Below are positions 10,864 through 62,866 of a DNA stretch of 64,000 nucleotides, piece after piece. The notes beneath the pieces were generated by a model, which saw nothing but the letters and a program-made list of their open reading frames with translations, did not search any database and was not told where the DNA came from. Origin of the DNA: Rhodospirillales bacterium (GTDB lineage Bacteria; Pseudomonadota; Alphaproteobacteria; MPNO01; UBA2964); assembly GCA_038116945.1 (NCBI GenBank), contig JAYOEY010000002.1, positions 20,958 to 84,957 on the forward strand, read 5' to 3'. The position numbers and the translations under genes were made by a program. Every line of letters starts with the position of its first letter. Position 1 is the stretch's first letter.

Positions 10864-12588
10864 CTATTGCAGCTTGTCCGTCGAGGGGGCGCAGGGGCTG
10901 ACACCGCCGTTCGCGGTTCCTCTTCTTCGCGCCAGCGCATCCTTCAGCCGGTGTTCGAATACGGTCGATGCCTCGCGCTGATACAGAACGTTCGTCAACG
11001 TCCGCCAGATTCGTTTCGGGTAGAAGAGATAGCTGATGAGGTAGTTGGTCACCATGAAACCCAAACGATAGATCGCAAGTTCCCGGCGGCCGATCGTCTC
11101 GTTGTGCGTGAGCGGCTTGAGCGATGTAAATTCGCTGTTGAGCGACGTCAGCCCGAGGAAATAGCGGTCGCTCAGCTCAATCACGCCGCTTTCCTGAAGG
11201 TGCGCGAAAATTTCCGTGCCGGGATAGGCGGAATAGATGTTGATCGATGCCTCGTCGACGCCCCTTGCGGCCATCTTGAGCCCGAACCAGACGGTCCGGT
11301 ACACATCGGCGCGCGTTTCGCCCGGAAAACCGATGATCAGGTTGGTCCGAAGCGTCAACCCCAGCCTTCGCGCCGCCATCACCGATTCCGTCAGGCGATC
11401 GAGCGACACCTTTTTCTTGATCAGCTCCAGCGTTCTGGGCGAGCCGCTTTCCGGCGCGTAACACAGATAGGTGCAGCCGGTCTTTTTCAGCAGCCCAAGC
11501 GTCTCCGCATCCAGCGCCTCCGAGCGGGTGCCCGACGGCAGCGACCATTTTACGTTGATGCCTTCGTCCAGCATCCGCTGGCACAGTTCGACGGTCCATT
11601 GTTTCTTGGTGATCGCCGTCAGGTCGTAGAGCTGTATCGACGTGATGTCGTATTCGCGGATGTAATGTTTCATCTCGGCGATGACGTCGTCGATGTCGCG
11701 CAGCAGATATCGCGTCGTCCACATCTGCGCGCTCGAGCAGAAGGTGCACTGAAACGGGCAGCCGCGCGAAATCATCATCGGCATGTCCCGTTCGGTCTGG
11801 ATGCCGAAAGACTTGCCGGCAGACCAGAATTTTTCCAGATAGCCGTTCTGCCAGTGGGGCCACGGAATGTTGTCGACATCCCGGATCCGGGTCAGGCCGA
11901 CGCTTTCCAGAAACTGTCCGTCGGGTCCGATCGTACAGACGCTGGCCAGGTTCGCCGGATCGCTTCCCTCGCGAACGGCCTCGACGATTTCGTAGAAGAC
12001 ATGCTCGCCCTCGCCCAGCGCGATGGCATCCAGCGCCGGGCAGTCGCGCAGCGAATATTCCGGCAGCGCGGTTGCGTGTTCGCCTCCCGCGACCAGAAAA
12101 GCGTCGGGAAAACGCGCGCGAACGGCTTCGATCAGCCGACGGTGTATCGGCCACTCGCCGGAAAACATGGTCGAAAACCCGATGACCCGGGCGTTTCCGG
12201 GGATCATCGCGACGGTCTGTTCGATGGTGATGCCCTGACACTGGTATCCGTCGATTCCCTCCGGGTGCCAGATGACGTTGAGCCCTTCGCCGACCGCATC
12301 GACGATGACCGGTTCATAGCCGCGTTTCTTCAGATAGCCGGCAATGAAAGCCAGCCCGATCGCGGGCGTCGCTTCGTTATTGAAAGCCGCGTAGGTGGAA
12401 AGGATCGGGCCCCGGACCAGCGCCACGCCGAATTCCGCTGCGCCGGCGTCGGCCGATACAGCGCCGACATCTCTCATGATCGGGCGCGGATTGCCGAACT
12501 TGCCGGGCGCGGGCGCGTTCAGCGAGCCCGGATCGGAACCCGGATCGGAAGTCGTGTCGATGTTCGCGGAGCCTGACATTGCAACCAT
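10864..12588 (-). CDS. cobalamin-dependent (class B-like) radical SAM enzyme number 1 (possible start at Met38, nt 12477)
   Basis: N-terminal B12-binding-like region (AIGLAFIAGYLKKRGYEPVIVDA) followed by a radical SAM core with ISRGCPFQCTFCSS (C-x3-C-x2-C). Confidence 0.8.
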   Translation of the reverse strand: MVAMSGSANIDTTSDPGSDPGSLNAPAPGKFGNPRPIMRDVGAVSADAGAAEFGVALVRGPILSTYAAFNNEATPAIGLAFIAGYLKKRGYEPVIVDAVGEGLNVIWHPEGIDGYQCQGITIEQTVAMIPGNARVIGFSTMFSGEWPIHRRLIEAVRARFPDAFLVAGGEHATALPEYSLRDCPALDAIALGEGEHVFYEIVEAVREGSDPANLASVCTIGPDGQFLESVGLTRIRDVDNIPWPHWQNGYLEKFWSAGKSFGIQTERDMPMMISRGCPFQCTFCSSAQMWTTRYLLRDIDDVIAEMKHYIREYDITSIQLYDLTAITKKQWTVELCQRMLDEGINVKWSLPSGTRSEALDAETLGLLKKTGCTYLCYAPESGSPRTLELIKKKVSLDRLTESVMAARRLGLTLRTNLIIGFPGETRADVYRTVWFGLKMAARGVDEASINIYSAYPGTEIFAHLQESGVIELSDRYFLGLTSLNSEFTSLKPLTHNETIGRRELAIYRLGFMVTNYLISYLFYPKRIWRTLTNVLYQREASTVFEHRLKDALARRRGTANGGVSPCAPSTDKLQ

Positions 12589-12767
12589 GATATGTATGGG
12601 GTTCGGATTCAGCAGTAAAGGAATTTTGAATCAAGGGTTTCCGGCTATCCTTGCCGTTTCCGGCGTTCAGCCCTCTATCTGCCGGTGTCCCCATGCCGTT
12701 CCGGGAGATCCCGACGCAGCCGGGCGGTCGCGGGAACGACATAAAATAAGGAAAATAAAGAATATTC

Positions 12768-12832
12768 TTGACGTTCATGGCGCGAACGCTTTAGTGTTCG
12801 TGCCGTGAACAAGATTGTTCAGAACGTGAACG
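12768..12832. promoter_or_regulatory. operator cluster 1: three tandem GTTC-N7-GAAC palindromes, overlapped by a TTGACG -35-like hexamer
   Basis: CGTTCATGGCGCGAACG (12772-12788), TGTTCGTGCCGTGAACA (12795-12811), TGTTCAGAACGTGAACG (12816-12832). Centre-to-centre spacings are 23 and 21 bp. TTGACG at 12768-12773. An AT-rich tract (ATAAAATAAGGAAAATAAAGAATATTC) lies immediately upstream. Confidence 0.6.
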
Positions 12833-12876
12833 TTAGCAATTCGCTTCTTTCGAACGATCGTCAAGCTGCAACGCCC

Positions 12877-13509
12877 ATGACAACGAATACTGTCTCGGAA
12901 GATGAAGCGAAAATAACGCTGGGTCTTCTCAACGCCATCGAGGCGAACAGCAAGGTGACGCAGCGAACCGTCGCCCACGACCTCGGTATCGCGCTCGGGC
13001 TGGCCAACGCTTACCTGAAACGATGCGTTCGCAAGGGGCTCATTAAGGTCCAGCAGGTTCCCGCAAACCGGTACGCCTATTATCTCACGCCGCAGGGTTT
13101 TGCGGAAAAGAGCCGGCTTACGGCCGAATATCTCACCATTTCGCTCAATTTTTTCCGCCGCGCGCGAAACGAATGCGCGGAAGTGTTTCGTCAGTGCGAA
13201 CAGCTTGGTTGGCGGCGGGTCGTTCTCGCCGGTACGGGCGACCTGACGGAAATTGCAACGCTGTGCGCGAATCATGCAGAGATCGAGCTGGTCGGTATCT
13301 ACGATCCCGCCGGGACAGCGGCGGATTTTTCCGGTCTGCGGGTGTCCGACAATCTGGCGGCGCTGGAACCCTTCGACGGCGTGGTCATTACCGCGTTCCG
13401 CAATCCGCAGGAAAGTTTCGATGCGCTGGTCCGGATGATTCCGGCCGCGCGCATCGCCGCGCCGGCGCTCCTCGGAATCTCGCGCGAACCGCCGCAGCTG
13501 ATGGAATAG
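12877..13509 (+). CDS. winged helix-turn-helix transcriptional regulator with a C-terminal Rossmann-like domain (Rex-like architecture)
   Basis: N-terminal wHTH (VTQRTVAHDLGIALGLANAYLKRCVRKGLIKV) and a C-terminal alpha/beta region with a glycine-rich loop (RRVVLAGTGDLTEIA). The track start at 12805 is GTG and overlaps the operator boxes, so the ATG at 12877 is preferred. Confidence 0.6.
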   Translation: MTTNTVSEDEAKITLGLLNAIEANSKVTQRTVAHDLGIALGLANAYLKRCVRKGLIKVQQVPANRYAYYLTPQGFAEKSRLTAEYLTISLNFFRRARNECAEVFRQCEQLGWRRVVLAGTGDLTEIATLCANHAEIELVGIYDPAGTAADFSGLRVSDNLAALEPFDGVVITAFRNPQESFDALVRMIPAARIAAPALLGISREPPQLME

Positions 13510-13512
13510 ACG

Positions 13513-14049
13513 ATGAACGCGTTTCTCGCAGATACGATGGACGGAAGCACCTGCTGGTACGTGGTGCACACCCACGCGCGGGCGGAAGAAACCGCGCAGC
13601 GCAATCTGATCCAGCAGGGTTTCCAGGCGTTTCTGCCGCAATACATGAAAAAGCGCCGGCATGCGCGGCGGACCGACTGGGTAAGCGCGCCGCTGTTTCC
13701 GCGTTACCTGTTCGTCGCGATCGATGTCGCCCGGGCGCGCTGGCGGTCGATATCGTCGACCATCGGCGTTCAGCATCTGATCTGCTGCGGGGAAATGCCG
13801 GTGGCGGTTCCTGAGGCGGTGATCGCGGAGATTCGCGCGCGCATGGATGAAACCGGAATGGTTCCGGTCAGACAGAAAGTACCGTTCCGCAAGGGCGAAA
13901 CGGTACTCGTCACCGGCGGGCCGCTTGCCGACCAGGTCGGGCTGTTCGACTGCGTCAGCGACGAGGAAAGGGTATTCCTTCTGCTCGACATTCTCGGGCG
14001 GCAGGTAAAGGTCAGGGTGCCGCTCGACGCCGTCACGCAATTCGCGTAA
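13513..14049 (+). CDS. NusG paralog (RfaH/UpxY/LoaP-like specialised transcription antiterminator)
   Basis: 178 aa with an NGN domain (WYVVHTHARAEETAQRNLIQQGFQAFLPQY...PLFPRYLFVAID) and a KOW-like C-terminus (GETVLVTGGPLADQVGLF). It is not in a secE/rplK context and its ATG lies 4 nt after the regulator's stop codon. Confidence 0.75.
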   Translation: MNAFLADTMDGSTCWYVVHTHARAEETAQRNLIQQGFQAFLPQYMKKRRHARRTDWVSAPLFPRYLFVAIDVARARWRSISSTIGVQHLICCGEMPVAVPEAVIAEIRARMDETGMVPVRQKVPFRKGETVLVTGGPLADQVGLFDCVSDEERVFLLLDILGRQVKVRVPLDAVTQFA

Positions 14050-14052
14050 CGC

Positions 14053-14065
14053 GGCGCGCGGCGCC
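14053..14065 (+). other. short GC hairpin GGCGC-GCG-GCGCC directly after the NusG-paralog stop (possible pause/attenuator; no U-tract)
   Basis: Perfect 5-bp inverted repeat with a 3-nt loop. Confidence 0.2.
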
Positions 14066-14107
14066 AGAGGCCAGCGCCCACGGGTGAGACATCGGTTTCA
14101 CCCGAAC

Positions 14108-14119
14108 GGTGGTAGCGTG
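14108..14119 (+). promoter_or_regulatory. ops-like element GGTGGTAGCGTG (11/12 match to the E. coli RfaH ops GGCGGTAGCGTG) in the leader of the plus-strand Pse operon
   Basis: On the coding strand, 19 nt upstream of the 14138 ATG and 59 nt downstream of the NusG-paralog stop codon. Confidence 0.5.
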
Positions 14120-14137
14120 GCCAAAATCACCCAAGAC

Positions 14138-14800
14138 ATGCCGCTTGCCGACAACGATAGCTGGCCGCTCAACGAAGACGGCGTGTGGATCGACCTCCGC
14201 GGGAAACCTCGGGAAAGGCCCGGTCCGGTCCTGTTTCTCGATCGCGACGGCGTCATCATTTTCGATGCCGTCTATGTCGGCGATCCCGCGGATGTGGCAA
14301 TTCTGCCGGATGCCGCCCGCATGATCGCAACGGCCAACCGGATGGAAATACCGGTCGCCGTCGTTACGAACCAGTCCGGGATCGACCGGGGATATTTCGG
14401 CTGGTCCGATTTCGATGGCGTGATGAAGCGGATTGCCGACGAGCTGGCGTCCAGGGGCGCCCATCTCGATGCGGTGGCCGCCTGTCCCTTTCATCCCGAT
14501 TTCACGCCGGGCTATGGCGCCATGCACGACGGGTGGCGCAAGCCCGGCGCGATGATGATCCTGACCCTGGCAAAAGAACTCAACGCGGATCCGTCGTCGT
14601 CCTGGATGGTCGGCGATCAGGAAAGCGACATCCTTGCGGCGGCGGCGGCGGGGCTGGGCCATGCGCTTCTGTTGAGTGACGCCGGCGGCGACAGCCGCGC
14701 CGCGCCGGTCGGGCCGTCCGGAACGAAGATCGTGACGGGCAATCTGGCGGGTTTCCTGGACAGCGGGACGGGCTTGTTCGCCAGCGCGAAAACGCGTTAG
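14138..14800 (+). CDS. HAD-family phosphatase, D,D-heptose 1,7-bisphosphate phosphatase (GmhB)/histidinol-phosphatase-like
   Basis: LFLDRDGVII (HAD motif I), VVTNQSG, GWRKPGAMMIL and VGDQESD motifs. The ATG at 14138 is preferred over the GTG at 14084, which would bury the ops-like element in coding sequence. Confidence 0.7.
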   Translation: MPLADNDSWPLNEDGVWIDLRGKPRERPGPVLFLDRDGVIIFDAVYVGDPADVAILPDAARMIATANRMEIPVAVVTNQSGIDRGYFGWSDFDGVMKRIADELASRGAHLDAVAACPFHPDFTPGYGAMHDGWRKPGAMMILTLAKELNADPSSSWMVGDQESDILAAAAAGLGHALLLSDAGGDSRAAPVGPSGTKIVTGNLAGFLDSGTGLFASAKTR

Positions 14801-14811
14801 CGGATCGTGGG

Positions 14812-15675
14812 TCAGTCGACGTCGAGACAGCTTTTCAGACCCGTCGACAGGTCGATCCCGGGTCGCCAGCCCAGCAGGGACTCGGCCTGCCTGGTGTCGG
14901 CAAACACGCATGGCGTGGGATCGTCGTCATCCTGACGCTGGGTGACGACTCCATCCTCTCCGCCGGCGATATCCCGCAGGAGCTGGACGACATCGCCGAT
15001 CCTGGTCGGTTTTCCGGTGCCGATATTGAGAGCCGTCATGGCGCCCGGTCTGGTTACGGCTTTTGCAATGGCATGGGCGACGTCGTCGACGTGAATGAAA
15101 TCCCTGATCGATTCCCGGTTTCTCACCTGTGCTTCGCCTTGGCCGCGAATCGCGCGGATAAGGTAAGGTATAAGGAAATATTCGGACTGGCCGGGCCCGT
15201 AGACATTGAACAGCCGGACAATGGTGCCCCTTACGCCGTGGACTTTCGCGTAATGTCGACAGAGTTCCTCACCCATATGTTTCGTCAAGGGATAGAGCCA
15301 GCGGGGCTCAACGGTGGCCGTCTCGGAAAGCGGTTCGGTCTCGGCGCGGGGCGCGTAGACGCCCGAGGTCGATGCAAAGACGATCGCCGCGCTGTTCCGG
15401 CGACAGGCCTCGAGGGCGTTTGCGAGCCCGGCGACGTTTACCGAAACCGTCTCGCCGGGATTTTCGGGCGCCCCGGACGGCGTCCGGGCGGCAAGGTGAA
15501 CGAGAGCGTCGAAATCGGCGCTGAACGTGTCGCTGTCGCGAACGTCTCCGTCGAGGATTCGAACGGCGGCCTTCTCACGCGACAGAGACCTGCGCACCGC
15601 CCGGCCGATGAAGCCGTTCGCTCCGGTGATGGCGATGATCGGGGCGTCGGTTTTACGGGGTTCGCGGGATGCCAT
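14812..15675 (-). CDS. NAD-dependent epimerase/dehydratase (SDR)
   Basis: IAITGANGFIGRAV Rossmann motif and YPLTK (YxxxK). Confidence 0.7.
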   Translation of the reverse strand: MASREPRKTDAPIIAITGANGFIGRAVRRSLSREKAAVRILDGDVRDSDTFSADFDALVHLAARTPSGAPENPGETVSVNVAGLANALEACRRNSAAIVFASTSGVYAPRAETEPLSETATVEPRWLYPLTKHMGEELCRHYAKVHGVRGTIVRLFNVYGPGQSEYFLIPYLIRAIRGQGEAQVRNRESIRDFIHVDDVAHAIAKAVTRPGAMTALNIGTGKPTRIGDVVQLLRDIAGGEDGVVTQRQDDDDPTPCVFADTRQAESLLGWRPGIDLSTGLKSCLDVD

Positions 15676-18465: not shown

Positions 18466-18528
18466 CGCGCCTTTCATCAGGTCCGATCGACCGGAGACGA
18501 AGCAGTGCCGCCTGATGGCGGCGAAACC

Positions 18529-19707
18529 ATGCCCATGACGCAGCGACGTTATATTCCTTACGGCCGCCAGGACATCGACGATCACGACAGGGCCGCCGTC
18601 GACCGAATCCTGCGCGCTGATTTCATCACGCAGGGACCGGCTATCGACGCGTTTGAAGCAGACCTCGCCGGATTGTGCGAATCCCGCTATAGCGTTGCCG
18701 TCAGCAGCGGCACTGCCGCGCTGCACCTCGCCTATCTCGCGCTTGGCGTCGGGCCCGGCGACACCGTCTGGACCACGCCCAACAGTTTTGTCGCGACCGC
18801 GAATGCCGCCCTCCTCTGCGGGGCGAAGGTCGACTTCGTCGATATCGATCCCGACACCCGATGCATGAGCCCCCAGGCGCTGGAGCGCAAGCTGGCCGCG
18901 AGCTCCGCGACAGCGCTGCCCAAGGCGGTCGTACCGGTTCATTTCGGCGGCCATTGCTGCGATATGCCCGCCATCGCCGGGCTCGCCGCAGCGTATGGAT
19001 TCCGGGTCGTCGAGGACGGCGCGCATTCGCTGGGGGCGGCATACAGGGACGCCGACGGCGCCCGGCACATGTTCGGTTCCTGCGCGCACGCCGACCTGGC
19101 GATCGCAAGCTTCCATCCGGTGAAGATAATCACCACCGGAGAGGGCGGTGCGGTCATGACCGGCGATGCCGAACTCGATCGTCGCCTGCGGCTGCTGCGG
19201 AGCCACGGCGTGACCCGCGATGCCGGGCTGATGGAAAACCCCTCAGAGGGCGACTGGTATTACGAGCAGGTTGCGCTCGGCCTCAACTACCGCATCACGG
19301 ATCTGCAATGCGCGCTGGGCAGCAGCCAGCTCGCGCGGCTGCCCGGTTTTCTCGAAAGACGGCGTCACCTGGCGGCCCGGTACGATGAGCTGCTTTCCGG
19401 TCTGCCGGTTCGCCGGCCGACAGTCATGCCGGGACACGAACCGGCCTGGCATCTCTACGCGATAGAGGTCGACGCCGACCGACGCCGATCTGCGTTCGAT
19501 GCCATGCGCGCCGCGGGCATCGGCGTTAACGTGCATTACATCCCGATCCATCTGCAGCCCCATTACCGTCGACTTCAGTTCGCGCCCGGACAGTTCCCGG
19601 TTGCGGAACGGTATTACCGGGGGGCGCTGTCCCTGCCGCTGTTTCCCGGTCTTGAAACTGACGAGCAGGATCATGTGGTATCCGTGCTGGCCGAGGCGCT
19701 GTCGTGA
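18529..19707 (+). CDS. pseC: DegT/DnrJ/EryC1 aminotransferase, PseC-like (UDP-4-amino-4,6-dideoxy-N-acetyl-beta-L-altrosamine transaminase)
   Basis: YIPYGRQDIDDHDRAAV start typical of PseC/ArnB, SSGTAALHLA, SFHPVKIITTGEGG (PLP lysine) and LRSHGV. Confidence 0.7.
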   Translation: MPMTQRRYIPYGRQDIDDHDRAAVDRILRADFITQGPAIDAFEADLAGLCESRYSVAVSSGTAALHLAYLALGVGPGDTVWTTPNSFVATANAALLCGAKVDFVDIDPDTRCMSPQALERKLAASSATALPKAVVPVHFGGHCCDMPAIAGLAAAYGFRVVEDGAHSLGAAYRDADGARHMFGSCAHADLAIASFHPVKIITTGEGGAVMTGDAELDRRLRLLRSHGVTRDAGLMENPSEGDWYYEQVALGLNYRITDLQCALGSSQLARLPGFLERRRHLAARYDELLSGLPVRRPTVMPGHEPAWHLYAIEVDADRRRSAFDAMRAAGIGVNVHYIPIHLQPHYRRLQFAPGQFPVAERYYRGALSLPLFPGLETDEQDHVVSVLAEALS

Positions 19708-21863: not shown

Positions 21864-22481
21864 ATGATCGGCATTCTCGACATCGGGATGGGCAATCTCG
21901 GCTCGGTATGGAACGCGACTTACGAGTCGGGGTTCGATCCCGAGATCGTCATCGATCCGGACGATCTCGACCAGATCGACCACCTCATCCTGCCCGGGGT
22001 CGGCCATTTCGCGACCGCGATGGAAAAACTCTGCGAAATGGGCATGGTCTCGCCGCTCAGGAGCTATGTCGAAAGCGGCCGTCCGCTGCTCGGTCTCTGC
22101 GTCGGCATGCAGGTGCTGGCCACCGAGGGAACGGAAGGCGCCAGGACGCCAGGGCTCGATATCATCGCCGGGACGGTCGACCGACTGCCGGTCAATCCGC
22201 CCTTCCGGGTACCGCATATCGGCTGGAACGCGGTCAGCGCCGTCCGGGATCATCCCGTCCTGGAGCGCATCAAACCTGAACGGGACTTTTACTTCGTCCA
22301 TTCCTACGCGTTCCGTCCGGTGGACGAGGCGAACATCGTGGCAAGAACCGAATACGGCGCGCCGTTTGCATCGATCGTCGGCCGGGCGAACGTACTCGGG
22401 TGCCAGTTCCACCCCGAGAAGAGTCAGGCCAACGGGTTGCGGATCCTGGAAAACTTCTGCCGGTGGGACGGGGTATGCTGA
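21864..22481 (+). CDS. HisH-like glutamine amidotransferase (WbuY-like), copy 1
   Basis: IGILDIGMGNLGSV, LLGLCVGMQVL (catalytic Cys), CQFHPEKS. Confidence 0.85.
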   Translation: MIGILDIGMGNLGSVWNATYESGFDPEIVIDPDDLDQIDHLILPGVGHFATAMEKLCEMGMVSPLRSYVESGRPLLGLCVGMQVLATEGTEGARTPGLDIIAGTVDRLPVNPPFRVPHIGWNAVSAVRDHPVLERIKPERDFYFVHSYAFRPVDEANIVARTEYGAPFASIVGRANVLGCQFHPEKSQANGLRILENFCRWDGVC

Positions 22482-38455: not shown

Positions 38456-38504
38456 GCCAGTTCCGGCACGGGATTGCCCAGGCCCATCCGCGCGATATCG
38501 CCGG

Positions 38505-52628: not shown

Positions 52629-52657
52629 GTTCCGCCGGCAACACGCAGAGTTACAGG

Positions 52658-53710: not shown

Positions 53711-54396
53711 TAGACGGCCGGACCGTACTGGGGCTTGTCATCGCGCGCGGCGGGTCCAAGGGCGTGCCGCGTAAGAACGTCCTCGATGTCTGCGGCAAAC
53801 CGCTGATCGCCTGGACGATCGAAGCGGCGGCGGGTTCCCGCTATGTCGACCGGATCGTTCTCTCGTCCGAGGATGAGGAAATCATCGAGGTCGCCCGCGC
53901 CAATGGCTGCGAAGCGCCCTTTGTACGGGATGCCGCACTGGCCACCGATGAAGCGACCGGGACCGCTGTCGTTCTCGACGCCATCGAACGGGTTTCCGGT
54001 TACGATCTTGTCGTGCTGCTTCAGGCTACCTCTCCGCTTCGTCTCGCCGAGGACATCGATGGCGCGATCGAACGGTGCGTTTCGTCGGGCCGACCGGCAT
54101 GCGTTTCGGTCGCCCCGCTCGGCAAGCCGCTGGAATGGCTGCTGGATGTGGATGCTGACGGCATGCTGACGCCGGTTGCCGGGCGCGACCTGCCGGAGCG
54201 CCGGCAGGAAGCGACCGCCGTCTATGCGCCGAACGGCGCCGTTTTCGTGGCCGACTGCGCCTGGCTGAGGAAGTCGGGGTCGCTCTACGGGGATGAAACG
54301 ATAGCCTATGTCATGCCCGCCGACCGTTCCGTCGATATCGATTCGCCCACCGATCTGGCGATCGCGCGGGCGCTGCTTGCCGAACGCCGGATCTGA
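53707..54396 (+). CDS. acylneuraminate cytidylyltransferase family, CMP-nonulosonic acid synthetase (PseF/LegF/NeuA-like; GTG start)
   Basis: LGLVIARGGSKGVPRKNV, LQATSPL. Confidence 0.8.
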   Translation: MIDGRTVLGLVIARGGSKGVPRKNVLDVCGKPLIAWTIEAAAGSRYVDRIVLSSEDEEIIEVARANGCEAPFVRDAALATDEATGTAVVLDAIERVSGYDLVVLLQATSPLRLAEDIDGAIERCVSSGRPACVSVAPLGKPLEWLLDVDADGMLTPVAGRDLPERRQEATAVYAPNGAVFVADCAWLRKSGSLYGDETIAYVMPADRSVDIDSPTDLAIARALLAERRI

Positions 54397-54416
54397 TACG
54401 GCCGGACCTGATCGAC

Positions 54417-55199
54417 ATGGCCAATATCCGTCTCATCCCGCGTCTGGATGTCAAGGCTCCCAACCTGATCAAGGGAGTCCATCTCGAGGGGCTGCGGGTA
54501 GTTGGCTCGCCGGGGGAATTTGCGCGGCGATACTATGAAGAGGGCGCGGACGAACTGCTCTACATGGATATCGTGGCGAGCCTGTACGGGCGCAACAATC
54601 TGGAGCAGATCGTGTCGGATACCGCGCGCGACGTGTTCATCCCGATGTGCGTCGGCGGCGGCATCCGGTCGGTCGACGACGCCACCCGCCTGCTGCGCGC
54701 CGGCGCCGACAAGGTGGCGATCAATACCGCCGCAATCGCCAACCCTGGTTTAATAGAAACGCTGTCCCGGCGCTTCGGGTCGCAGTGCATCGTTCTGTCC
54801 ATCGAAGCCAAACAAACGCGGGCGGGCGGCTGGGAGGCCTTTACGGACAACGGGCGCGAAAAGACCGGTCGCGACGCCATCGCCTGGGCGATCGAAGCCG
54901 CCGAACGAGGCGTCGGCGAAATACTCGTCACCTCGGTCGACCGGGAAGGGACGCGAAAGGGCTTCGATATCGCGCTTGCCGACGCCATCGCCGGCGCGGT
55001 GCCGGTGCCGGTAATCGCAAGCGGCGGCATGGGTTCGGTCGAACATCTTGTCGAAGTCGTCCGCAACGGTCATGTCGACGCCGTCGCGATGGCGGATGTC
55101 CTTCACTACGAGCGGCTGAGCCTGAAGGAAATCAGACGCGCGGCGCTGGATGCAGGGCTGGCCGTCAGGCCGGAAGCGCCCGCCGCGCTGGCCTCATGA
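54417..55199 (+). CDS. HisF-like cyclase subunit, copy 2
   Basis: IRLIPRLDVKAPNLIKGVHLEG and CVGGGIRSVDD. Confidence 0.8.
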   Translation: MANIRLIPRLDVKAPNLIKGVHLEGLRVVGSPGEFARRYYEEGADELLYMDIVASLYGRNNLEQIVSDTARDVFIPMCVGGGIRSVDDATRLLRAGADKVAINTAAIANPGLIETLSRRFGSQCIVLSIEAKQTRAGGWEAFTDNGREKTGRDAIAWAIEAAERGVGEILVTSVDREGTRKGFDIALADAIAGAVPVPVIASGGMGSVEHLVEVVRNGHVDAVAMADVLHYERLSLKEIRRAALDAGLAVRPEAPAALAS

Positions 55200-55831
55200 C
55201 GAAAATTGCCGTCATCGATTACGGCGCAGGGAACCTGTTCAGCATTGCGCGCGCGCTCGAACATTGCGGCGCGACGCCGGTATTTACCGCCGATCCCGAT
55301 TCCCTTCGAAAGGCCGACAGGGCCATCCTTCCCGGCGTCGGCGCGTTCGGCGACGGCATGGCGGCCCTGCGACAGGCAAGCCTGTCAGCCGCGATTGCAG
55401 AGCTTGCCGCGGCGGGGAACCCGGTTCTCGGAATCTGCCTCGGCATGCAGATGCTGTTCGATGCCAGCGAGGAGTTCGGCGACCATACCGGTCTGGCGCT
55501 GATCCCGGGCCGGGTATTGCCGCTGCCGCGGACCCGGGCCGACGGCGCGCCGCAGAAGGTGCCGCATATCGGCTGGAACGATCTGTGCGAACCGGCTCCC
55601 GGTCGTTGGGCGGGCACTCCGCTGGCAGCCATCGCGCCGGGAACATCGGCCTATTTCGTTCACTCCTTCGCCGCCGTGCCAGCAGACGGCCGCGACGCGA
55701 TCGCGACATGCGTCTATGGCGGCCACGCGATTACCGCCGCCGTGCAAAGGGACAATGTCTGCGGCTGCCAGTTCCATCCGGAGCGCAGCGGTCCGGCGGG
55801 CCTGTCGATCATCCGGCAGTTTCTGGCCTGA
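55196..55831 (+). CDS. HisH-like glutamine amidotransferase, copy 2
   Basis: IAVIDYGAGNLFSI, VLGICLGMQML, CQFHPERS. The ATG at 55196 overlaps the upstream TGA. The track's 54647 start is a spurious extension. Confidence 0.8.
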   Translation: MTKIAVIDYGAGNLFSIARALEHCGATPVFTADPDSLRKADRAILPGVGAFGDGMAALRQASLSAAIAELAAAGNPVLGICLGMQMLFDASEEFGDHTGLALIPGRVLPLPRTRADGAPQKVPHIGWNDLCEPAPGRWAGTPLAAIAPGTSAYFVHSFAAVPADGRDAIATCVYGGHAITAAVQRDNVCGCQFHPERSGPAGLSIIRQFLA

Positions 55832-55850
55832 CAGCGAATTGCGCCGAATT

Positions 55851-55865
55851 CCCGCCGCAGGCGGG
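55851..55865 (+). other. hairpin CCCGCC-GCA-GGCGGG after the HisH-like copy 2 stop (possible factor-independent terminator lacking a U-run)
   Basis: Perfect 6-bp stem and 3-nt loop, 20 nt after the stop codon. The next gene starts about 60 nt further downstream. Confidence 0.2.
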
Positions 55866-55927
55866 AGGACGGATCCCTGAAACCCTTACCCGATGCCAGA
55901 ACGCATCAAATCTTGGAAAGTGGCTGA

Positions 55928-56638
55928 ATGACCGAAATACTGGATTACAAACATACCGAAGTTTACTACCCCGACCATCGCGACGAGCCGAAACAGCTGT
56001 TTGTCGAGATCGCCGACCGCATAGAACTGAGCGCCGGCGGCTCCCCTTTCGACCTGCTCGACGTCGGCGGCGCATCGGGCGATTTCGTATACTATATCGG
56101 GAAACGTTTTCCCGATTCCGCCTGCACCTGCATCGAGTATGACAGCGAACTGGTCGCGCTCGGCCAGGAACGCGTGCCGGCCTGCCGCTACATTCAAGGC
56201 GATGCCAACGACATGAAGGAGTTTTCCGACCGGTCGTTCGATTTCGTCACCATGACGGGCGTGCACAGCATTTTCGACGATTTTCGGCCGTCGCTGGCGG
56301 AGTCGATCCGCGTTACCCGGGATGGCGGGCGCTGCATCATTACCGGGCTTTTCAACGATTACCCCATCGATGCGCTGATCTACTGGCACTATGCCGGCGA
56401 CGAGAACGGCCTGCGGCGCGGATACAATTTCATCTCGACGCAGACCGTAAGCACGTTCCTCGAATCGCAGGATCGCGTCGCCGCGTTCCGCTTCGAGCCC
56501 TTCAGGATCCCGTTCGATCTCGAAAAACCCGACGACCCCATACGGTCCTGGACCGAACCGGGCGCCGACGGTGAGCGCGTCATCATAAACGGGATCATGC
56601 CGCTCAATATTCAGTCGCTCGTCCTCGAGATATCCTGA
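55928..56638 (+). CDS. class I SAM-dependent methyltransferase
   Basis: LLDVGGASGDF (motif I), IQGDANDM. Confidence 0.7.
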   Translation: MTEILDYKHTEVYYPDHRDEPKQLFVEIADRIELSAGGSPFDLLDVGGASGDFVYYIGKRFPDSACTCIEYDSELVALGQERVPACRYIQGDANDMKEFSDRSFDFVTMTGVHSIFDDFRPSLAESIRVTRDGGRCIITGLFNDYPIDALIYWHYAGDENGLRRGYNFISTQTVSTFLESQDRVAAFRFEPFRIPFDLEKPDDPIRSWTEPGADGERVIINGIMPLNIQSLVLEIS

Positions 56639-56672: not shown

Positions 56673-58706
56673 ATGGATCAAACAGTCATGAAATCCCCGC
56701 CGCACGCCCGCTCGCCGACGCCTGTCCGGCATTCGAGCATCGGCGTCGACCATCTGGATTTCTGGGCGGCGCTGCATCTGATCCGCAGGCCGCCCACCGG
56801 GCGAATCGTTTGCCTGACCCGGAGCACGGGGTTCTGCGCCCGGTTCGTCGTATCGCTGTTGCGCCGCAGGGGCATCCGCGTCGATACGGTCACTTCGCCG
56901 CTCGTCGAAAGACCGGCACCCGGCTATTACGCGGAGTTCATGGAGCGCAAGGTCGATTGCAGCATCAACCATGTGGAACCCGCCATCGCCCGTACGCTCG
57001 CGGACTGGCACTTTGCGAACGATCTCGAAAGGCGGCGAACGGTTCGATATCTGCTGCTTGCCCACTCGCGCGTCGTCATGCGTCAGACGGAGTTGGTCGA
57101 GGCGGCGATCCGTCTCGACAGGGCCGACGGACCCGTGGCCGTCCTGATGCAGAAAGACGGTCTGAGCGAAGGGCTGGCGGGATTTGCGCGGGCCTCCGGG
57201 CTGGAGGCCGAGTTTTACAGGGCGCCGTTCCGGCTTCGCATGACGCGACGGCCGGATCTGGGAACCCATGAGACCGATCTCTGGTCCGGCGAAGCTGCCC
57301 TGCGGCACGTACTGAGATGGTTTGCGTTGGTCGGCTTGAACGCGGGAGCCTTGCTCCGGCGTCAGACCGGCGGCGCGCCCCCCGAATTCGATATCATTGC
57401 CCTGACGGCCCGCCCGTCGCCGACCCCCGAGATCGACGACCTCTACTGGCTCGACGATTTGCGTCGGACCGGCGATGTCCGTATCGGACTGTTTTATACG
57501 ACGCCGGTATCCACCGACGCCCGGACCCGTTACGGCGGGCGTCTCGACGGGCCCTACGAAATAGCGGCGCTGACCCGCGGCCGCCAGGCCGGTTGCGATC
57601 TCGGCAGGCAGTTTCTTGCCTGCCGGCTGCGCGGGATTGTTGCGGCCGGCAAGCGCATCGTCGGCCCCGTTCTGCGCCGCCGGCTTCCCGTCGCATTCGG
57701 CGCCGCGCTGCTCACGCTCTGGGAGCGGGCGTCGCTCTATGAGGCGTTGATGCTTCGGACAGGAGCGAGAGTGGGATGGGCGATGAACGAAGGCCATGAG
57801 CTCAACACCCAGGCGATCGCGATCGCGGCGGCGCGAACCGGCGGGATCGTGGCGGGCTCGACCTGGTCGATCTGGTTCGGCCCGCAGCTCGATTCGGCGC
57901 TCAACAGGAACGATGTCATGTTCGTATGGGGCGAGCGACACGTCCGGCTGTTCGAGGCGTCCGCAGCTCTGATCGACAGCCAGGTCATCGCCGGATATCC
58001 GTCTCGGGGTTTCAGGGACGACGACAGCGCCGCGCGCGACATCGTCGCCCGCTGGCGGCATCAGGACCCCGACGCGCTTGTGTTGTGCCTCTACGACAAT
58101 GCGGCGGCGCAGGACTTTCCCGTCGTGGCGTCCGAAATCGAGGGCCTCTATCGTGCGATCGTCAACGCCATGGACCGCAGGTCCGAACTGAGGCTCATTC
58201 TCAAGACCAAGCGGCCGGACCTGGCATCGAATTCGCTGCCGTTTCGAAGCGATCTGGAACGCCTGTTCGCCGAGGACCGCATTGCCGTCGTTGACCGTTA
58301 CGGGGATCTTGCGCCGGGCCTCGCCGCCGACGTCGTGATCGGGGTTTCCGCATCGTCGCTCGGGCTCATGTGCGCCCATCGCGGCAAGCCTTTCATCGCC
58401 TTCGATCCGAGCGGCATCCTCATACGCTATCCGGCGCGCGGTCTCGCCGACCTGCGCATCGTCGAAGGACCCGAACAGCTCGAGACCGCCCTCATCGAAC
58501 TGACCGCCGACGGCGAAAAGCGGTGCCCGGCGTCGGACGATATCGACGGTTTTGCCGATACCGCCGGCGCCCGGCGCGCGGCGCAATATCTCAACGCTGT
58601 GGTTGCCGCCGCCCGCGAAGGGGCCTCCCGGGACGAAATGATTGACAGCGGCCGTCGGGAGGCAGAGTCATGGCGTTCCTGTCACACACTCGAAAAAACC
58701 GCCTGA
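56673..58706 (+). CDS. large hypothetical protein (677 aa; possible glycan transferase, unassigned)
   Basis: No diagnostic motif. It sits between the methyltransferase and amidotransferase copy 2 within a tightly packed operon. Confidence 0.35.
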   Translation: MDQTVMKSPPHARSPTPVRHSSIGVDHLDFWAALHLIRRPPTGRIVCLTRSTGFCARFVVSLLRRRGIRVDTVTSPLVERPAPGYYAEFMERKVDCSINHVEPAIARTLADWHFANDLERRRTVRYLLLAHSRVVMRQTELVEAAIRLDRADGPVAVLMQKDGLSEGLAGFARASGLEAEFYRAPFRLRMTRRPDLGTHETDLWSGEAALRHVLRWFALVGLNAGALLRRQTGGAPPEFDIIALTARPSPTPEIDDLYWLDDLRRTGDVRIGLFYTTPVSTDARTRYGGRLDGPYEIAALTRGRQAGCDLGRQFLACRLRGIVAAGKRIVGPVLRRRLPVAFGAALLTLWERASLYEALMLRTGARVGWAMNEGHELNTQAIAIAAARTGGIVAGSTWSIWFGPQLDSALNRNDVMFVWGERHVRLFEASAALIDSQVIAGYPSRGFRDDDSAARDIVARWRHQDPDALVLCLYDNAAAQDFPVVASEIEGLYRAIVNAMDRRSELRLILKTKRPDLASNSLPFRSDLERLFAEDRIAVVDRYGDLAPGLAADVVIGVSASSLGLMCAHRGKPFIAFDPSGILIRYPARGLADLRIVEGPEQLETALIELTADGEKRCPASDDIDGFADTAGARRAAQYLNAVVAAAREGASRDEMIDSGRREAESWRSCHTLEKTA

Positions 58707-60043
58707 TTATGGATTCGAAATCAGAAACGTCCCCGCCATCCGGCGCCTTCGATATCGACGCCTTCGCGCCCGAAGCCAACGAACTTCCGGCGCGTTACGG
58801 ACTTCCCCGGGATGTCGCTTTCTGTAACCGGTGCGTTATTTCCAATCAGCGTCCGTCATCCAGTATCGAATTCAAGACTCGGGCTGACAGTCCCAAGACG
58901 ACGATCCGGATGGACGACGACGGAGTCTGCGACGCCTGTCATTTCGCCGAGCACAAGCAGAAAGAGATCGACTGGAACGCGCGGGAAGACGAACTGCGCG
59001 AACTGTGCGACCGGTTCCGGCGCACCGACGGCGCTTACGACTGCGTTGTTCCCGGCTCGGGTGGAAAGGACAGCGTCTATGCGGCGCATGTCCTGAAATA
59101 CAAGTACGGCATGCATCCGCTGACGGTTACCTGGGCGCCGCATATCTATACCGACTGGGGATGGAAGAATTTCCAGGCGTGGCTCCATTCGGGTTTCGAC
59201 AATCAGCTGTTTACGCCCAACGGCCGGGTGCACCGGCTCCTGACCCGGCTGGCGCTCGACCGCCTGCTGCATCCGTTCCAGTCCTTCGTGCTGGGACAGA
59301 AGAACGTGGCTCCCAGGGTGGCGGCGCGCTACGGCATTCCCCTGATCTTTTACGGCGAAAACGAAGCCGAGTACGGCAATCCCATTGCGGACAATACAAG
59401 CGCGAGACGCGACTGGTCCTACTTCAGCGCGCAGGACGATTCCGATATTTTCATCAGCGGCGCGTCGGTGGAGGAGCTGATCGGCGACTACGGCGTCGAC
59501 CGCGCGGACCTGCAGCCGTACATGCCGGCGGATCCGTCGCAGCTCGAACGCCACAATATCGAGGTCCATTATCTCGGCTACTACCTCAAATGGCATCCGC
59601 AGAGCTGCTATTACTACGCGGTGGAACATTGCGGGTTCGAGGCCGCGCCGGAACGCACCTCGGGCACCTACAGCAAGTATAACTCGATCGACGACAAGGT
59701 CGACGACCTGCATTACTACACGACCTATATAAAGTTCGGCATCGGCCGAGCGACCTACGATGCGGCGCAGGAAATCCGTTCCGGCGATATCACGCGCGAA
59801 GAGGGCATCGCGCTGGTCAAACGGTTCGACGGCGAATATCCCGAGCGGTTCTTCGACGAGCTGATGACCTATCTCAGCATTCCGGAGGAAGAATTCCCCG
59901 TTGCGCACGGGCGCTTCGATCAGCCCCTCATGGACAGGGCCTGTTTCGATGCGCTGTGCGACAGTTTCCGGTCTCCTCATATATGGAAATACGAAGGCGG
60001 TGAATGGCGTCTGCGCCGCACCGTCTGGGAAGACGTTCTTTAA
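58670..60043 (+). CDS. PP-loop N-acetyl sugar amidotransferase, copy 2 (alternative start ATG 58709)
   Basis: CNRCVISNQ...CDACHF Cys cluster and CVVPGSGGKDSVY PP-loop. Same architecture as 20619..21830. Confidence 0.8.
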   Translation: MAFLSHTRKNRLIMDSKSETSPPSGAFDIDAFAPEANELPARYGLPRDVAFCNRCVISNQRPSSSIEFKTRADSPKTTIRMDDDGVCDACHFAEHKQKEIDWNAREDELRELCDRFRRTDGAYDCVVPGSGGKDSVYAAHVLKYKYGMHPLTVTWAPHIYTDWGWKNFQAWLHSGFDNQLFTPNGRVHRLLTRLALDRLLHPFQSFVLGQKNVAPRVAARYGIPLIFYGENEAEYGNPIADNTSARRDWSYFSAQDDSDIFISGASVEELIGDYGVDRADLQPYMPADPSQLERHNIEVHYLGYYLKWHPQSCYYYAVEHCGFEAAPERTSGTYSKYNSIDDKVDDLHYYTTYIKFGIGRATYDAAQEIRSGDITREEGIALVKRFDGEYPERFFDELMTYLSIPEEEFPVAHGRFDQPLMDRACFDALCDSFRSPHIWKYEGGEWRLRRTVWEDVL

Positions 60044-60237: not shown

Positions 60238-60264
60238 CGAGCACGGATTCGGCGGACAGGATCG

Positions 60265-61296: not shown

Positions 61297-61321
61297 ATAA
61301 AGGACACAGGGGAATACCGAT

Positions 61322-62866
61322 ATGGCCAAGGTCCTGTTCATAAATCCGACAGTGCGTCAGGAAGACGTGCCCCGCCATGTGCCTTACGGCATCGCTTTGC
61401 TGGCGGCCATCGCCATGGAGAAAGGCCACCAGGTCCAGGTCTATGACGAAAACGCCTGGCGTCTTGGCCCGGAGACCCGGAAGCAGGTGCTCGAAGCCGA
61501 CGACTGGGACGTCATCGCGATGGGCGGCATCACCACCGCCTACCGGTCGATCAAAAGCGCAGTCGCCATGGCGCGGGAGGTCTGTCCCGACGCGGTGATC
61601 GTTCTGGGCGGCGGCGTCCTGACATCGATTCCGCACGACATCATGGGATGGCTCGACGCGGTCGATGTCGGCTGCGTCGGAGAGGGGTTCGTGACCTTTC
61701 CCGAGATTCTCGAGATGGTCGATTCCGGCAAGCGCGACTGGCACATGATCAAGGGCACGGTTTATCGCCGGGAAGACGGCAGGACGATGCTGTCGGGAGC
61801 GCGCGAACTGTTGCAGGATCTCGATTCGCTGCCCTATCCGGCGTGGGATCTGTTCCCGCTGGAAGATGTCTATTTCAAGAACAGCGCGGCGCTGTTTTCC
61901 GAAGAAGGCATGCTGGCGAGCCGGCGGCTCGACATCAACACGTCATACGGCTGTTCGCTCGTCTGCAAGTTCTGCTACCACCTCGGCATCGCCGGCGACA
62001 TGCGTTACGAGGAAGACGATTCCGGCAGGGTCAACGTGGCGTTTGACCAGACCGGCAGCTACACACGCGACATCCGCTACCACAGCCCGGAATATGTCGT
62101 GAAAATGGTCAAGCATGCCTACGACAAGTACAACATCAATTTTATCGGGTTCCTCGACGAGAACCTGATGACCATGGATGTGTTCTCCGGCCGGACCTGG
62201 ATGAAGGAAATCTGCCGCCTGTGGCACGAGTACGGCCTGGCGCCCAAAGCGCGGCCGGACGGGACCTGGGAGGGCATCCACTGGGGCGGCACCAGCCATG
62301 CCACGCTGTGCAATCAGGAAATCCTGAAGATCATGCGCGAAGCGGGCTGTTCGCACCTGGTCTACGGGTATGAATCCTTTGCGCCGCACGTCCTGAAAAC
62401 GATCGGCAAGGGATCGACCGTCAAGACCAACCTGCGCAGCTTCTTCTGGACGCTGGAAGCGGGCATCCGGCCCATCCCCAACCAGATCATTGGGTTTCCC
62501 AACGAGGATTTCGACTCGCTTCGCATGTCGATGGACGCGTGGCACAAGCTCGGGATCGTCGTCAAACCGCACTTCGCGACGCCCTACCCAGGATCGGAAT
62601 GGTTCACGGTGCACCGCAAGCGTATCGAAGAGCAGTACGGCGGCGACCTGGAAAAATTCATCATCGATGTCGGGGACGCGTCTCAGATTTCGGCGGTGAT
62701 TTCGCATAATTTCAACGCGGTCGAGCTGATCGGCCTGCGCGAGTTCATGGTCAATTTCCAGTACGACAAGATCGACGCTTATGAGAAAGAATGGCGCCGA
62801 CGCCACAATGTTCCCGAAGGCGCGCCATCGTCCCTCATTCCGCTCGCCAAGAGCGCCGCGGAATAA
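61322..62866 (+). CDS. cobalamin-dependent radical SAM enzyme number 4
   Basis: MAKVLFINPTVRQ...GIALLAAIAMEKGHQVQVYDEN (B12-domain-like) and SYGCSLVCKFCYH (C-x3-C-x2-C). AGGGGAA ribosome-binding site upstream. Confidence 0.8.
   Translation: MAKVLFINPTVRQEDVPRHVPYGIALLAAIAMEKGHQVQVYDENAWRLGPETRKQVLEADDWDVIAMGGITTAYRSIKSAVAMAREVCPDAVIVLGGGVLTSIPHDIMGWLDAVDVGCVGEGFVTFPEILEMVDSGKRDWHMIKGTVYRREDGRTMLSGARELLQDLDSLPYPAWDLFPLEDVYFKNSAALFSEEGMLASRRLDINTSYGCSLVCKFCYHLGIAGDMRYEEDDSGRVNVAFDQTGSYTRDIRYHSPEYVVKMVKHAYDKYNINFIGFLDENLMTMDVFSGRTWMKEICRLWHEYGLAPKARPDGTWEGIHWGGTSHATLCNQEILKIMREAGCSHLVYGYESFAPHVLKTIGKGSTVKTNLRSFFWTLEAGIRPIPNQIIGFPNEDFDSLRMSMDAWHKLGIVVKPHFATPYPGSEWFTVHRKRIEEQYGGDLEKFIIDVGDASQISAVISHNFNAVELIGLREFMVNFQYDKIDAYEKEWRRRHNVPEGAPSSLIPLAKSAAE

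Follow-up and report, generated by a model that had tools for sequence, protein, structure and literature searches.

We analysed a stretch of 64,000 nucleotides from a Rhodospirillales bacterium (assembly GCA_038116945.1, contig JAYOEY010000002.1, positions 20,958 to 84,957 of the forward strand), hereafter called the window, in which four genes for radical S-adenosylmethionine (SAM) enzymes of class B, the class with a vitamin B12-type domain, lie within 52 kb among sugar genes. We call them rSAM1 to rSAM4. From its homology to TokK and CysS, its predicted fold, and its linkage to genes for nonulosonic acid (NulO) biosynthesis and cobalamin uptake, we infer that rSAM3 is a methylcobalamin-dependent C-methyltransferase that acts in NulO biosynthesis. 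As a whole, we consider it probable, though well short of certain, that the window is a glycan island with four tailoring class-B enzymes, that rSAM3 is a NulO C-methylase, and that the island supplies CMP-pseudaminic acid and part of a second, legionaminic-like NulO, together with acetamidino groups, O-acyl decorations, and a phosphonate in nucleotide-activated form. A first-pass annotation of this DNA had predicted that the four enzymes place C-methylated or otherwise radical-modified decorations on sugars or phosphonates of a NulO glycan. This prediction is partly supported, as the case is strong for rSAM3 and plausible for the other three, and it was wrong on the rarity of such loci and on the phosphonate link.

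Four class-B radical SAM genes among sugar operons

Genes were called from open reading frames (ORFs) and codon-position GC, which gave 52 proteins in the window, and the products were scanned against Pfam and NCBIfam. The four genes in question are the following (aa, amino acids).

10864-12588, minus strand: rSAM1, 574 aa; Pfam B12-binding and Radical_SAM domains; CPFQCTFC at residue 277
42274-44370, minus strand: rSAM2, 698 aa; extra N-terminal Rossmann-like domain, B12-type Rossmann domain and radical SAM core; CPGQCTYC at residue 423
49530-51578, plus strand: rSAM3, 682 aa; B12 radical SAM enzyme of the TokK/CysS/KedN5 type; CPYRCTFC at residue 207
61322-62866, plus strand: rSAM4, 514 aa; Pfam B12-binding and Radical_SAM domains; CSLVCKFC at residue 211

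All four ORFs exist where the first-pass annotation had placed them, and the starts of rSAM2 (44370) and rSAM3 (49530) are backed by alignments of homologues. Alignments with homologues run over essentially the whole length of each of the four proteins, so all are intact and none is a pseudogene. A radical SAM core had been claimed for each of them, and Radical_SAM (PF04055) is matched in 4 of 4 (E-values from 4e-30 to 2e-12); the four quoted cluster motifs are present, and no other CxxxCxxC match occurs in the 52 called proteins. The annotation had also named domain analysis as the check that could overturn its N-terminal B12-binding-type domains, and in that analysis the claim held, with PF02310 scores of 50.0 bits for rSAM1, 79.6 for rSAM2, and 47.2 for rSAM4, all above the gathering score (the score of rSAM3 is taken up below). 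At pairwise identities of 21-27%, the four are no recent duplicates, as had been stated, and judged by sequence they are members of four different class-B families. Each gene lies inside a sugar operon or heads one, and the clustering of four class-B radical SAM genes is clearly non-random. Their interleaving with pse, amidotransferase, and ppm genes is genuine according to the NCBIfam and Pfam scans of the window.

rSAM3 resembles TokK and CysS in sequence and predicted fold

In phmmer searches, rSAM3 matched TokK with an E-value of 8.7e-51 and CysS with 2.1e-30. The alignment with TokK begins at residue 48 and has an identity of 27-28%. The block ETNRxCPYxCxFCxWG is conserved between the two proteins, and W216 of rSAM3, which is kept in at least 90% of its family, is aligned with W215 of TokK, a residue that sits between the cobalamin and the [4Fe-4S] cluster (PMC12931638). 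The AlphaFold (AF2) model of rSAM3, built with 23 homologues in the alignment, has a predicted local distance difference test score (pLDDT) of 89.9 and matches TokK (7KDX) over its full length with template modelling (TM) scores of 0.75/0.77, followed by CysS (9N1D) with 0.70/0.77, while TsrM and AprD4 are far behind. Thus, rSAM3 shares with TokK/ThnK, CysS, and KedN5 a Rossmann cobalamin domain, a radical SAM barrel, and a helical C-terminal domain, and with TokK and CysS also the motif and the tryptophan between cobalamin and cluster. Against the model of the KedN5 family (NF033712) it scores 175.5 bits, where the cut-off is 700, so that it forms a family of its own. The genomic setting is different as well: TokK/ThnK (carbapenem) and CysS (cystobactamid) come from antibiotic clusters, whereas rSAM3 comes from NeuB/NeuC/NeuA clusters and has no pantetheine or carrier-protein context.

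The rSAM3 family is linked to nonulosonic acid genes

The rSAM3 family is large and its conservation is good. At 47-87% identity, the protein collection has over 400 clusters of it, which come from Tara samples, a Woesearchaeota bin, Magnetofaba, Magnetococcales, and Deltaproteobacteria, and at least 493 stretches of metagenome contigs encode a relative. A sample of 80 metagenomic and 2 genomic loci, most of them short, was used to cluster the neighbours within 6 kb of the rSAM3 homologue. The numbers of loci (of 82) with each neighbour were as follows.

CMP-NulO cytidylyltransferase: 19-22
NeuB: 19-20
UDP-GlcNAc 2-epimerase (NeuC/LegG type): 18
DUF6580 membrane protein: 16
Short-chain dehydrogenase/reductase (SDR) dehydratase: 15
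DegT: 13
TonB-dependent receptor: 12
Second B12 radical SAM: 8-9

NeuB was found in 18 and a CMP-NulO transferase in 16 of the 36 loci of at least 8 kb, and a NeuB, NeuC-type, or NeuA-type gene lay at most 6 kb away in 15 of the 18 loci longer than 13 kb. The NulO-linked loci range in GC content from 24 to 63%, and the gene orders in rSAM3 loci are co-directional and operon-like. Because a genome has only about one to two copies of NeuB, this linkage should represent a very large enrichment, reckoned from that copy number and not measured against random genes. The claim of the first-pass annotation that cobalamin-dependent C-methylation is tied to NulO biosynthesis is therefore strongly backed for rSAM3 by the homology to TokK and CysS and by the conserved neighbourhood.

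A scan of genome contigs gave two relatives, a Rhodospirillales metagenome-assembled genome (MAG) and a Magnetovibrio MAG (compared loci carry L numbers of our own). In the former, which is the closest genomic relative (L003), the homologues of rSAM3 (68% identical) and rSAM4 (70%) belong to one block with SDR, DegT, NeuB, PtmE-like, WbuX, HisF/H, CMP-transferase, and MptE-like genes, and a LegC-like DegT homologue lies upstream of the rSAM3 homologue. Another locus (L017, positions 1-14388, of a 165-kb metagenome contig) holds an rSAM3 homologue of 52% identity among reshuffled homologues of window genes, namely the carbamoyltransferase (75% identical), MBOAT, AlgX/SGNH, the DUF6044 protein, a family 2 glycosyltransferase (GT2), a dehydratase, and DegT, and this reshuffling indicates that modules are exchanged between loci.

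Marine loci link rSAM3 homologues to a cobalamin riboswitch

We scanned 11 low-GC (25-28%) marine loci with Rfam (L053, positions 10001-14878; L088, positions 1-7322; L036, L039, L054, L058, L060, L061, L064, L066, and L069) and found an AdoCbl-II riboswitch in 10 of the 11, with 72-96 bits in complete copies. The riboswitch is followed by a gene for a TonB-dependent receptor and then by the DUF6580 gene, directly beside the rSAM3 homologue, and the arrangement is of two kinds, being divergent in some loci and tandem in others. The rSAM3 homologues of these loci are 50-98% identical among themselves. The linkage to the riboswitch and the TonB-dependent receptor is contextual support that the rSAM3 family uses cobalamin. 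A sequence search of the PDB for a likeness of DUF6580 to a solved B12 transporter gave no match. The marine block of NulO and rSAM3 genes lies against a 23S rRNA gene, at its 3' end, and a 5S gene is missing there; this is the known boundary of the O-chain cluster of Pelagibacterales (PMC11898729).

These loci also suggest a B12-dependent step of surface-glycan synthesis in abundant marine bacteria.

Proposed reaction of rSAM3

If rSAM3 works as TokK-type homology predicts, a first SAM would methylate cob(I)alamin, and from a second SAM, split at the [4Fe-4S] cluster, a 5'-deoxyadenosyl radical would arise. This radical would take a hydrogen from an unactivated sp3 carbon of an intermediate of the NulO pathway, either of a nucleotide-linked sugar or of its N-acyl or acetimidoyl side chain, and the substrate radical would then take a methyl group from methylcobalamin, possibly more than once. 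The substrate could be a nucleotide-linked intermediate, CMP-NulO, or the methyl group of an N-acetyl or acetimidoyl substituent. Domain architecture, homology, and the linkage to NulO and cobalamin-uptake genes are what we observed, and from there we infer the substrate, the site, and the number of methylations. There are precedents for such chemistry: GenK, GenD1, Fms7, and MoeK5 are class-B enzymes that C-methylate sugar carbons of aminoglycosides or moenomycin, and Fom3, which acts on CMP-activated hydroxyethylphosphonate (HEP), is a precedent for a nucleotide-activated substrate. All five are listed as characterised enzymes in PMC12931638, all belong to secondary metabolism, none is reported for cell-surface glycans or NulOs, and we liken them to rSAM3 by description only.

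rSAM1, rSAM2, and rSAM4

The best PDB match of rSAM2 in phmmer was 9CCB (E 4.9e-27), which is QCMT/MgmA, a cobalamin-dependent glutamine C-methylase (PMC12931638), and the top Foldseek matches of its AlphaFold model (pLDDT 79) were QCMT/MgmA (9ccb), AprD4, TsrM, OxsB, CysS, and TokK. Its family is small, with about 40 full-length clusters, among them bins of Magnetococcales, Dormibacteraeota, and Binatia. The family alignment shows that its members share a conserved N-terminal extension of about 220 residues, and in the model this extension folds into an extra Rossmann-like domain (about residues 20-160) that precedes the B12-type domain. The extension (residues 1-220) carries the motifs QTMEQALF..SNE and NTPVAPK.LP.EETV. 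By profile, sequence, and fold, QCMT/MgmA, BchE, HpnJ, and ApyD are the nearest known enzymes to rSAM2 and, more distantly, to rSAM1 and rSAM4, but the scores are far below the cut-offs, and the extra Rossmann-like domain of rSAM2 is absent from these enzymes. In the window, rSAM2 heads a minus-strand operon that continues with an MBOAT gene, a membrane-anchored 366-aa protein, a PhyH dioxygenase, an ABC exporter, and PseB; its homologue in L012 lies among MBOAT, SGNH, GT2, PMT_2, and PseB-like genes. The predicted role of rSAM2 is to tailor the glycans of the island, by methylation or another radical reaction.

A locus from a Joint Genome Institute (JGI) metagenome (L010, positions 1-22109) packs seven radical SAM genes into 22 kb. 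A B12 domain is present in three of the seven, and both rSAM2 (61% identity) and rSAM1 (42%) have a homologue there. A heptosyltransferase, an epimerase, oxygenases resembling Asp/Arg hydroxylases and cupin/JmjC proteins, and large proteins without annotation are encoded in the locus too.

The family of rSAM1 is much larger, with 3807 significant homologues among 8000 candidates scored, and homologues of about 60% identity come from Myxococcales, Rokubacteria, and Paramagnetospirillum magnetotacticum MS-1. Three contexts of rSAM1 homologues are all glycan loci, with glycosyltransferases of families 2 and 4 (GT2/GT4), several class I methyltransferases, AsnB-type amidotransferases, ABC exporters, and NeuB, and the locus of strain MS-1 has two further radical SAM genes. 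The closest relative of rSAM1 (77% identical, L006/L007) keeps a downstream CysNC gene, and there a pair of HTH_24 and NusG genes is divergent from the rSAM1 homologue, as the winged-helix regulator gene and the NusG paralogue are in the window, where the two head the long plus-strand glycan operon. Paired with the adenosine 5'-phosphosulfate (APS) kinase gene, rSAM1 would act on the same glycans as rSAM2, again by methylation or another radical reaction.

The conserved trio of regulator, NusG, and rSAM1 suggests a dedicated antitermination control of the island. The CysNC-like protein of the window (9349-10794) has EF1A-C-terminal and APS-kinase domains and no GTPase domain, which its L006/L007 orthologue (619-632 aa) has, and its first 180 or so residues match no family.

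Close relatives of rSAM4 are rare. Among 1.84 billion representatives there is one 50%-identity cluster at 66% and about four further full-length clusters at 41-44%, beyond which lies a generic background of B12 radical SAM proteins, and the PDB sequence matches of rSAM4 are marginal. In L003, the 70%-identical homologue is found in the same place, after the MptE-like gene (58% identical). From this association we take rSAM4 to be co-inherited with the MptE-like and Leg-like genes, and it too would have a tailoring function on these glycans, through methylation or some other radical step.

Gene content of the island

The window has a GC content of about 62% and is one large island, a mosaic of about 60 kb with which an uncultured bacterium of the Rhodospirillales type would build surface glycans. 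A polysaccharide is the likeliest product, and protein glycosylation is possible too. The sequence was assembled from a metagenome, and proteins identical to rSAM1 and rSAM3 are encoded on Logan contigs of 3 and 23.5 kb and on an NCBI contig of 360 kb. Besides the four radical SAM genes, its main features are as follows.

7530-9341, plus strand: phosphoenolpyruvate (PEP) mutase fused to a C-terminal nucleotidyltransferase; NCBIfam PEP_mutase (TIGR02320) 391.5 bits against a cut-off of 319.55; Pfam NTP_transf_3 at residues 361-480
9349-10794, minus strand: CysN(C-terminal)/CysC-like APS kinase, directly downstream of rSAM1; Pfam APS_kinase and GTP-eEF1A_C; NCBIfam apsK 252 bits
12805-13509, plus strand: winged-helix regulator ORF, divergent from rSAM1; from the ORF listing
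13513-14049, plus strand: NusG paralogue; Pfam NusG
18505-19707, plus strand: PseC aminotransferase; NCBIfam PseC 494 bits against a cut-off of 423.5
20619-21830, plus strand: WbuX N-acetyl sugar amidotransferase of amidino module 1; NCBIfam WbuX 314 bits against a cut-off of 203
21864-22481, plus strand: HisH-like protein of amidino module 1; Pfam GATase
22400-23239 (ORF), plus strand: HisF-like protein of amidino module 1; Pfam His_biosynth
25817-27337, plus strand: PseG fused to a GNAT (PseH-like) domain; NCBIfam PseG 246.5 bits against a cut-off of 153.55; weak PseH match
27334-28029, plus strand: formyltransferase-like gene; Pfam Formyl_trans_C_2; start refined
30175-31251, plus strand: PseI pseudaminic acid synthase; NCBIfam PseI 492.5 bits against a cut-off of 340
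35511-36497, minus strand: PseB, the last gene of the operon led by rSAM2; NCBIfam PseB 521.6 bits against a cut-off of 407.75
36638-38629, minus strand: ABC exporter; Pfam
38505-39338, minus strand: PhyH-type dioxygenase; Pfam
39465-40565, minus strand: 366-aa protein with an N-terminal membrane anchor; hydropathy scan
40513-41910, minus strand: MBOAT acyltransferase; Pfam
44607-46790, plus strand: polytopic membrane protein, 727 aa; faint Pfam DUF6044 match; transmembrane scan
46845-48254, minus strand: AlgX/SGNH-type acyl-modification protein; Pfam
51627-56638, plus strand: Leg-like and modification genes, namely an SDR dehydratase/epimerase, a PtmE-like CBS-nucleotidyltransferase, a CMP-NulO cytidylyltransferase, HisF2, HisH2, and a class I methyltransferase; Pfam, NCBIfam, and synteny with L003
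56688-58706: 672-aa protein; at most a faint PFTS_polysacc match
58670-60043, plus strand: second WbuX amidotransferase; NCBIfam WbuX 392.6 bits
60265-61296, plus strand: MptE-like protein (Maf/PseD-type domain), 343 aa; Pfam MptE-like 55.6 bits against a cut-off of 34.6
62867-64000, plus strand: DegT-family aminotransferase (LegC-like), cut by the end of the window; Pfam DegT_DnrJ_EryC1 4.7e-87

In all, the window has three CMP-sugar cytidylyltransferases and several DegT and SDR proteins, and there are also a PIG-L deacetylase, GNATs, and two weak matches to putative NulO transferases of the BFO_1060/TIGR04396 type, and the left end of the window holds a carbamoyltransferase, Ugd, and a heparinase II/III-like gene. 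The 672-aa and 727-aa proteins may be glycan transferases or polymerases of the island.

The presence of pse genes, as proposed in the first-pass annotation, is borne out by equivalog matches, since PseB, PseC, PseG, and PseI are above their NCBIfam equivalog cut-offs. PseH is seen only as GNAT domains (29.9 bits against 93.1), and the best candidate for PseF (53707-54396) reaches 145 bits against 205.7, with two other CTP_transf_3 genes in the window. The two WbuX amidotransferases are each accompanied by a HisH/HisF pair. The proposed leg-like genes stand in a qualified form. PseI is the sole NeuB-family synthase in the window, where neither a second NeuB (LegI) nor an Epimerase_2 gene (LegG) was found, so that the legionaminic acid pathway is incomplete there, and the designation Leg-like is based on the PtmE-like, CMP-transferase, SDR, and DegT genes and on the synteny with L003. 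As L003 holds a 2-epimerase and a second NeuB in the corresponding block, those of this genome probably lie beyond base 64000, at which the Leg-like set that starts at rSAM3 is probably cut off.

We did not adopt the reading of the window as a pure flagellin-glycosylation island. The only Maf-like signal is the 343-aa MptE-like protein, no flagellar genes were found in the window, and the NusG-paralogue regulator, the ABC exporter, the MBOAT and AlgX-type periplasmic acylation genes, Ugd, and the heparinase-like gene also led us to drop it.

Alternative explanations

Several observations speak against the explanation that we prefer. The PF02310 score of rSAM3 is below the gathering score (28.1 against 32.1 bits), and its B12-type domain is accepted despite this because of the homology to the cobalamin domain of TokK and the match in fold. 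The substrates of TokK and CysS are linked to pantetheine and are not sugars, and our proposals for the substrate and the methylation site of rSAM3 are guesses. The riboswitch linkage of the marine loci could in part be inherited synteny of related lineages, and the window itself has no cobalamin riboswitch or B12 genes; the scan for RNA families and tRNAs found none in it. Furthermore, rSAM1, rSAM2, and rSAM4 are far below every curated NCBIfam cut-off and match AprD4 about as well as they match true cobalamin enzymes, and the rSAM2 homologue of L011 (Magnetococcales) has no glycan neighbours.

The first-pass annotation had predicted methylated or otherwise radical-modified products for the four enzymes. 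Support for the methylation in this prediction does not extend to rSAM1, rSAM2, and rSAM4, whose nearest families (BchE, HpnJ, ApyD, and QCMT, with AprD4 in the core) count among their members enzymes that do not methylate and even some that are free of cobalamin. There is a considerable chance, although we put it below even, that one or more of the three are no methylases and that their 5'-deoxyadenosyl radical serves a different reaction on sugars, whether or not cobalamin takes part. This could be dehydration or deoxygenation as in AprD4, ring contraction or rearrangement as in OxsB and in HpnJ, an enzyme that acts on a sugar, the glucosamine of hopanoids, or else epimerisation, or oxidation and cyclisation as in BchE. 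The best curated matches of rSAM2 and rSAM4 are indeed BchE and HpnJ (210 and 207 bits for rSAM2, 85 and 84.5 for rSAM4, with cut-offs of 481 and 578), and rSAM1 has 121 bits with BchE and 131 with HpnJ. AprD4 is the best or second-best PDB sequence match of all three proteins and ranks second in the structural search with rSAM2. Despite their Rossmann-like domains, AprD4 and ArsL bind no cobalamin, and BchE, HpnJ, and OxsB are class-B enzymes that do not methylate (PMC12931638); the precedent of AprD4 means that a B12-type Rossmann domain alone is no proof of cobalamin use. However, PF02310 is above the gathering score in these three proteins, the sequence matches to AprD4 are confined to the radical SAM core and lie outside the N-terminal domain, QCMT/MgmA as a cobalamin C-methylase tops the matches of rSAM2 by both sequence and structure, and the majority of characterised class-B enzymes are methylases. 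An explanation in which the four genes have no connection with the glycan, being enzymes of lipids, cofactors, or peptides that are made on ribosomes and modified after translation (RiPPs) in a hypervariable island, could account for the setting of the L011 homologue and for the appearance of ApyD (RiPP) and QCMT (protein) among the matched families. We regard it as very unlikely, given that four such genes lie in 52 kb, each within or heading a sugar-gene operon, that homologues of the four recur in glycan loci, and that domain scans found no precursor-peptide or lipid-pathway genes in the window.

The substrate of Fom3 is a CMP-activated phosphonate, and 1.5 kb from rSAM1 the window has a true fusion of PEP mutase and nucleotidyltransferase, with the ten-residue mutase signature EDKxxxxxNS at residue 175. 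rSAM1 might thus be a Fom3-like or PhpK-like C- or P-methyltransferase acting on a phosphonate from this fusion, so that the glycan would bear a methylated phosphonate, an idea also raised by the first-pass annotation, and its top NCBIfam match is in fact the Sden_1168 P-methyltransferase. That match, however, has 162 bits against a cut-off of 575, and PhpK has 78 against 600; the genes of rSAM1 and the mutase belong to separate transcription units that converge, and the APS-kinase gene lies between the two; and domain scans of the window proteins found no phosphonopyruvate decarboxylase. The rSAM1 homologues in L005, L006, and L008 keep CysNC, class I methyltransferases, AsnB, and glycosyltransferases, and PEP mutase is absent beside them, so that phosphonate methylation is not supported by conservation. 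We consider it unlikely. As to the fusion itself (7530-9341), the window has no obvious coupling enzyme that could pull the unfavourable equilibrium of the mutase.

Relation to known systems

Some known loci come close to the window in gene content. With the pseudaminic acid (Pse; PseBCHGIF) and legionaminic acid (Leg/Ptm) loci of Campylobacter, Helicobacter, Legionella, and Tannerella it shares PseB, PseC, PseG, PseI, PtmE-like, CMP-transferase, and acetamidino genes and the MptE-like domain, and it differs from them in the addition of four radical SAM genes, PEP mutase, MBOAT/SGNH genes, and a NusG-paralogue regulator. To our knowledge, the NulO decorations described so far (N-acyl, amidino, N-methyl, and O-acyl groups) are the work of conventional enzymes, and nearly all class-B radical SAM enzymes that are known belong to pathways for antibiotics, cofactors, lipids, or RiPPs.

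The combination had been called highly unusual for a surface-glycan locus, and as a statement of rarity this was mistaken, because the families of rSAM1 and rSAM3 are large and members of the former are found within glycan loci in Magnetospirillum, among other bacteria. The presence of several radical SAM genes in one glycan locus is also seen repeatedly: other loci combine 3 to 7 of them (three in L005, seven in L010), L003 has two, and a second B12 radical SAM gene accompanies rSAM3 homologues in many loci. The picture is one of a shared toolbox of glycan-tailoring modules in environmental Proteobacteria and their relatives. The accompanying statement that radical-modified Pse or Leg glycans are not described agrees with our full-text searches, which in the library searched found no paper that functionally links radical SAM enzymes to pseudaminic, legionaminic, or nonulosonic acids, and no relevant paper on radical SAM and O-antigen. 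The radical SAM genes mentioned in a Campylobacter phase-variation paper are of the non-B12 MoaA/SkfB type. A 2026 review of B12 radical SAM enzymes does not contain the words glycan, polysaccharide, or sugar (PMC12931638), and the paper on the Pelagibacterales O-chain names neither radical SAM nor pseudaminic, legionaminic, or nonulosonic acid (PMC11898729). Thus, what appears to be new here is the recognition of a link between radical SAM enzymes and NulOs; the kind of enzyme is known, and its biosynthetic role is undescribed.

Implications

We tentatively suggest, and would not be surprised to be wrong, that the rSAM3 family marks a widespread and unrecognised branch of NulO biosynthesis, in which C-alkylation by a TokK-like methylcobalamin enzyme, either on the sugar or on its N-acyl or acetimidoyl group, would yield products such as a C-methyl NulO or side chains of the propionyl or isobutyryl type. 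The family itself ranges from magnetotactic and Rhodospirillales bacteria to abundant low-GC marine bacteria, where it stands beside an uptake operon under B12-riboswitch control in a 23S-rRNA-adjacent island that resembles the Pelagibacterales O-chain cluster. The window would be the most elaborate example of the proposed branch, with three further radical SAM steps on the same glycans.

Immune evasion, motility (through flagellin glycosylation), and phage recognition all depend to a large degree on NulOs. If the proposal is true, it would add a new class of C-alkylated NulOs and a new substrate class for B12 radical SAM chemistry, and the rSAM3 family offers a directly testable hypothesis that leads from gene to structure. 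rSAM1, rSAM2, and rSAM4 add to the radical tailoring steps of bacterial glycans that are still unexplored. The marine loci linked to a riboswitch suggest an unexpected dependence of surface-glycan structure on vitamin B12, and should the wider proposal be true, the supply of vitamin B12 would directly shape cell-surface glycans in the ocean, and hence recognition by phages and grazers.

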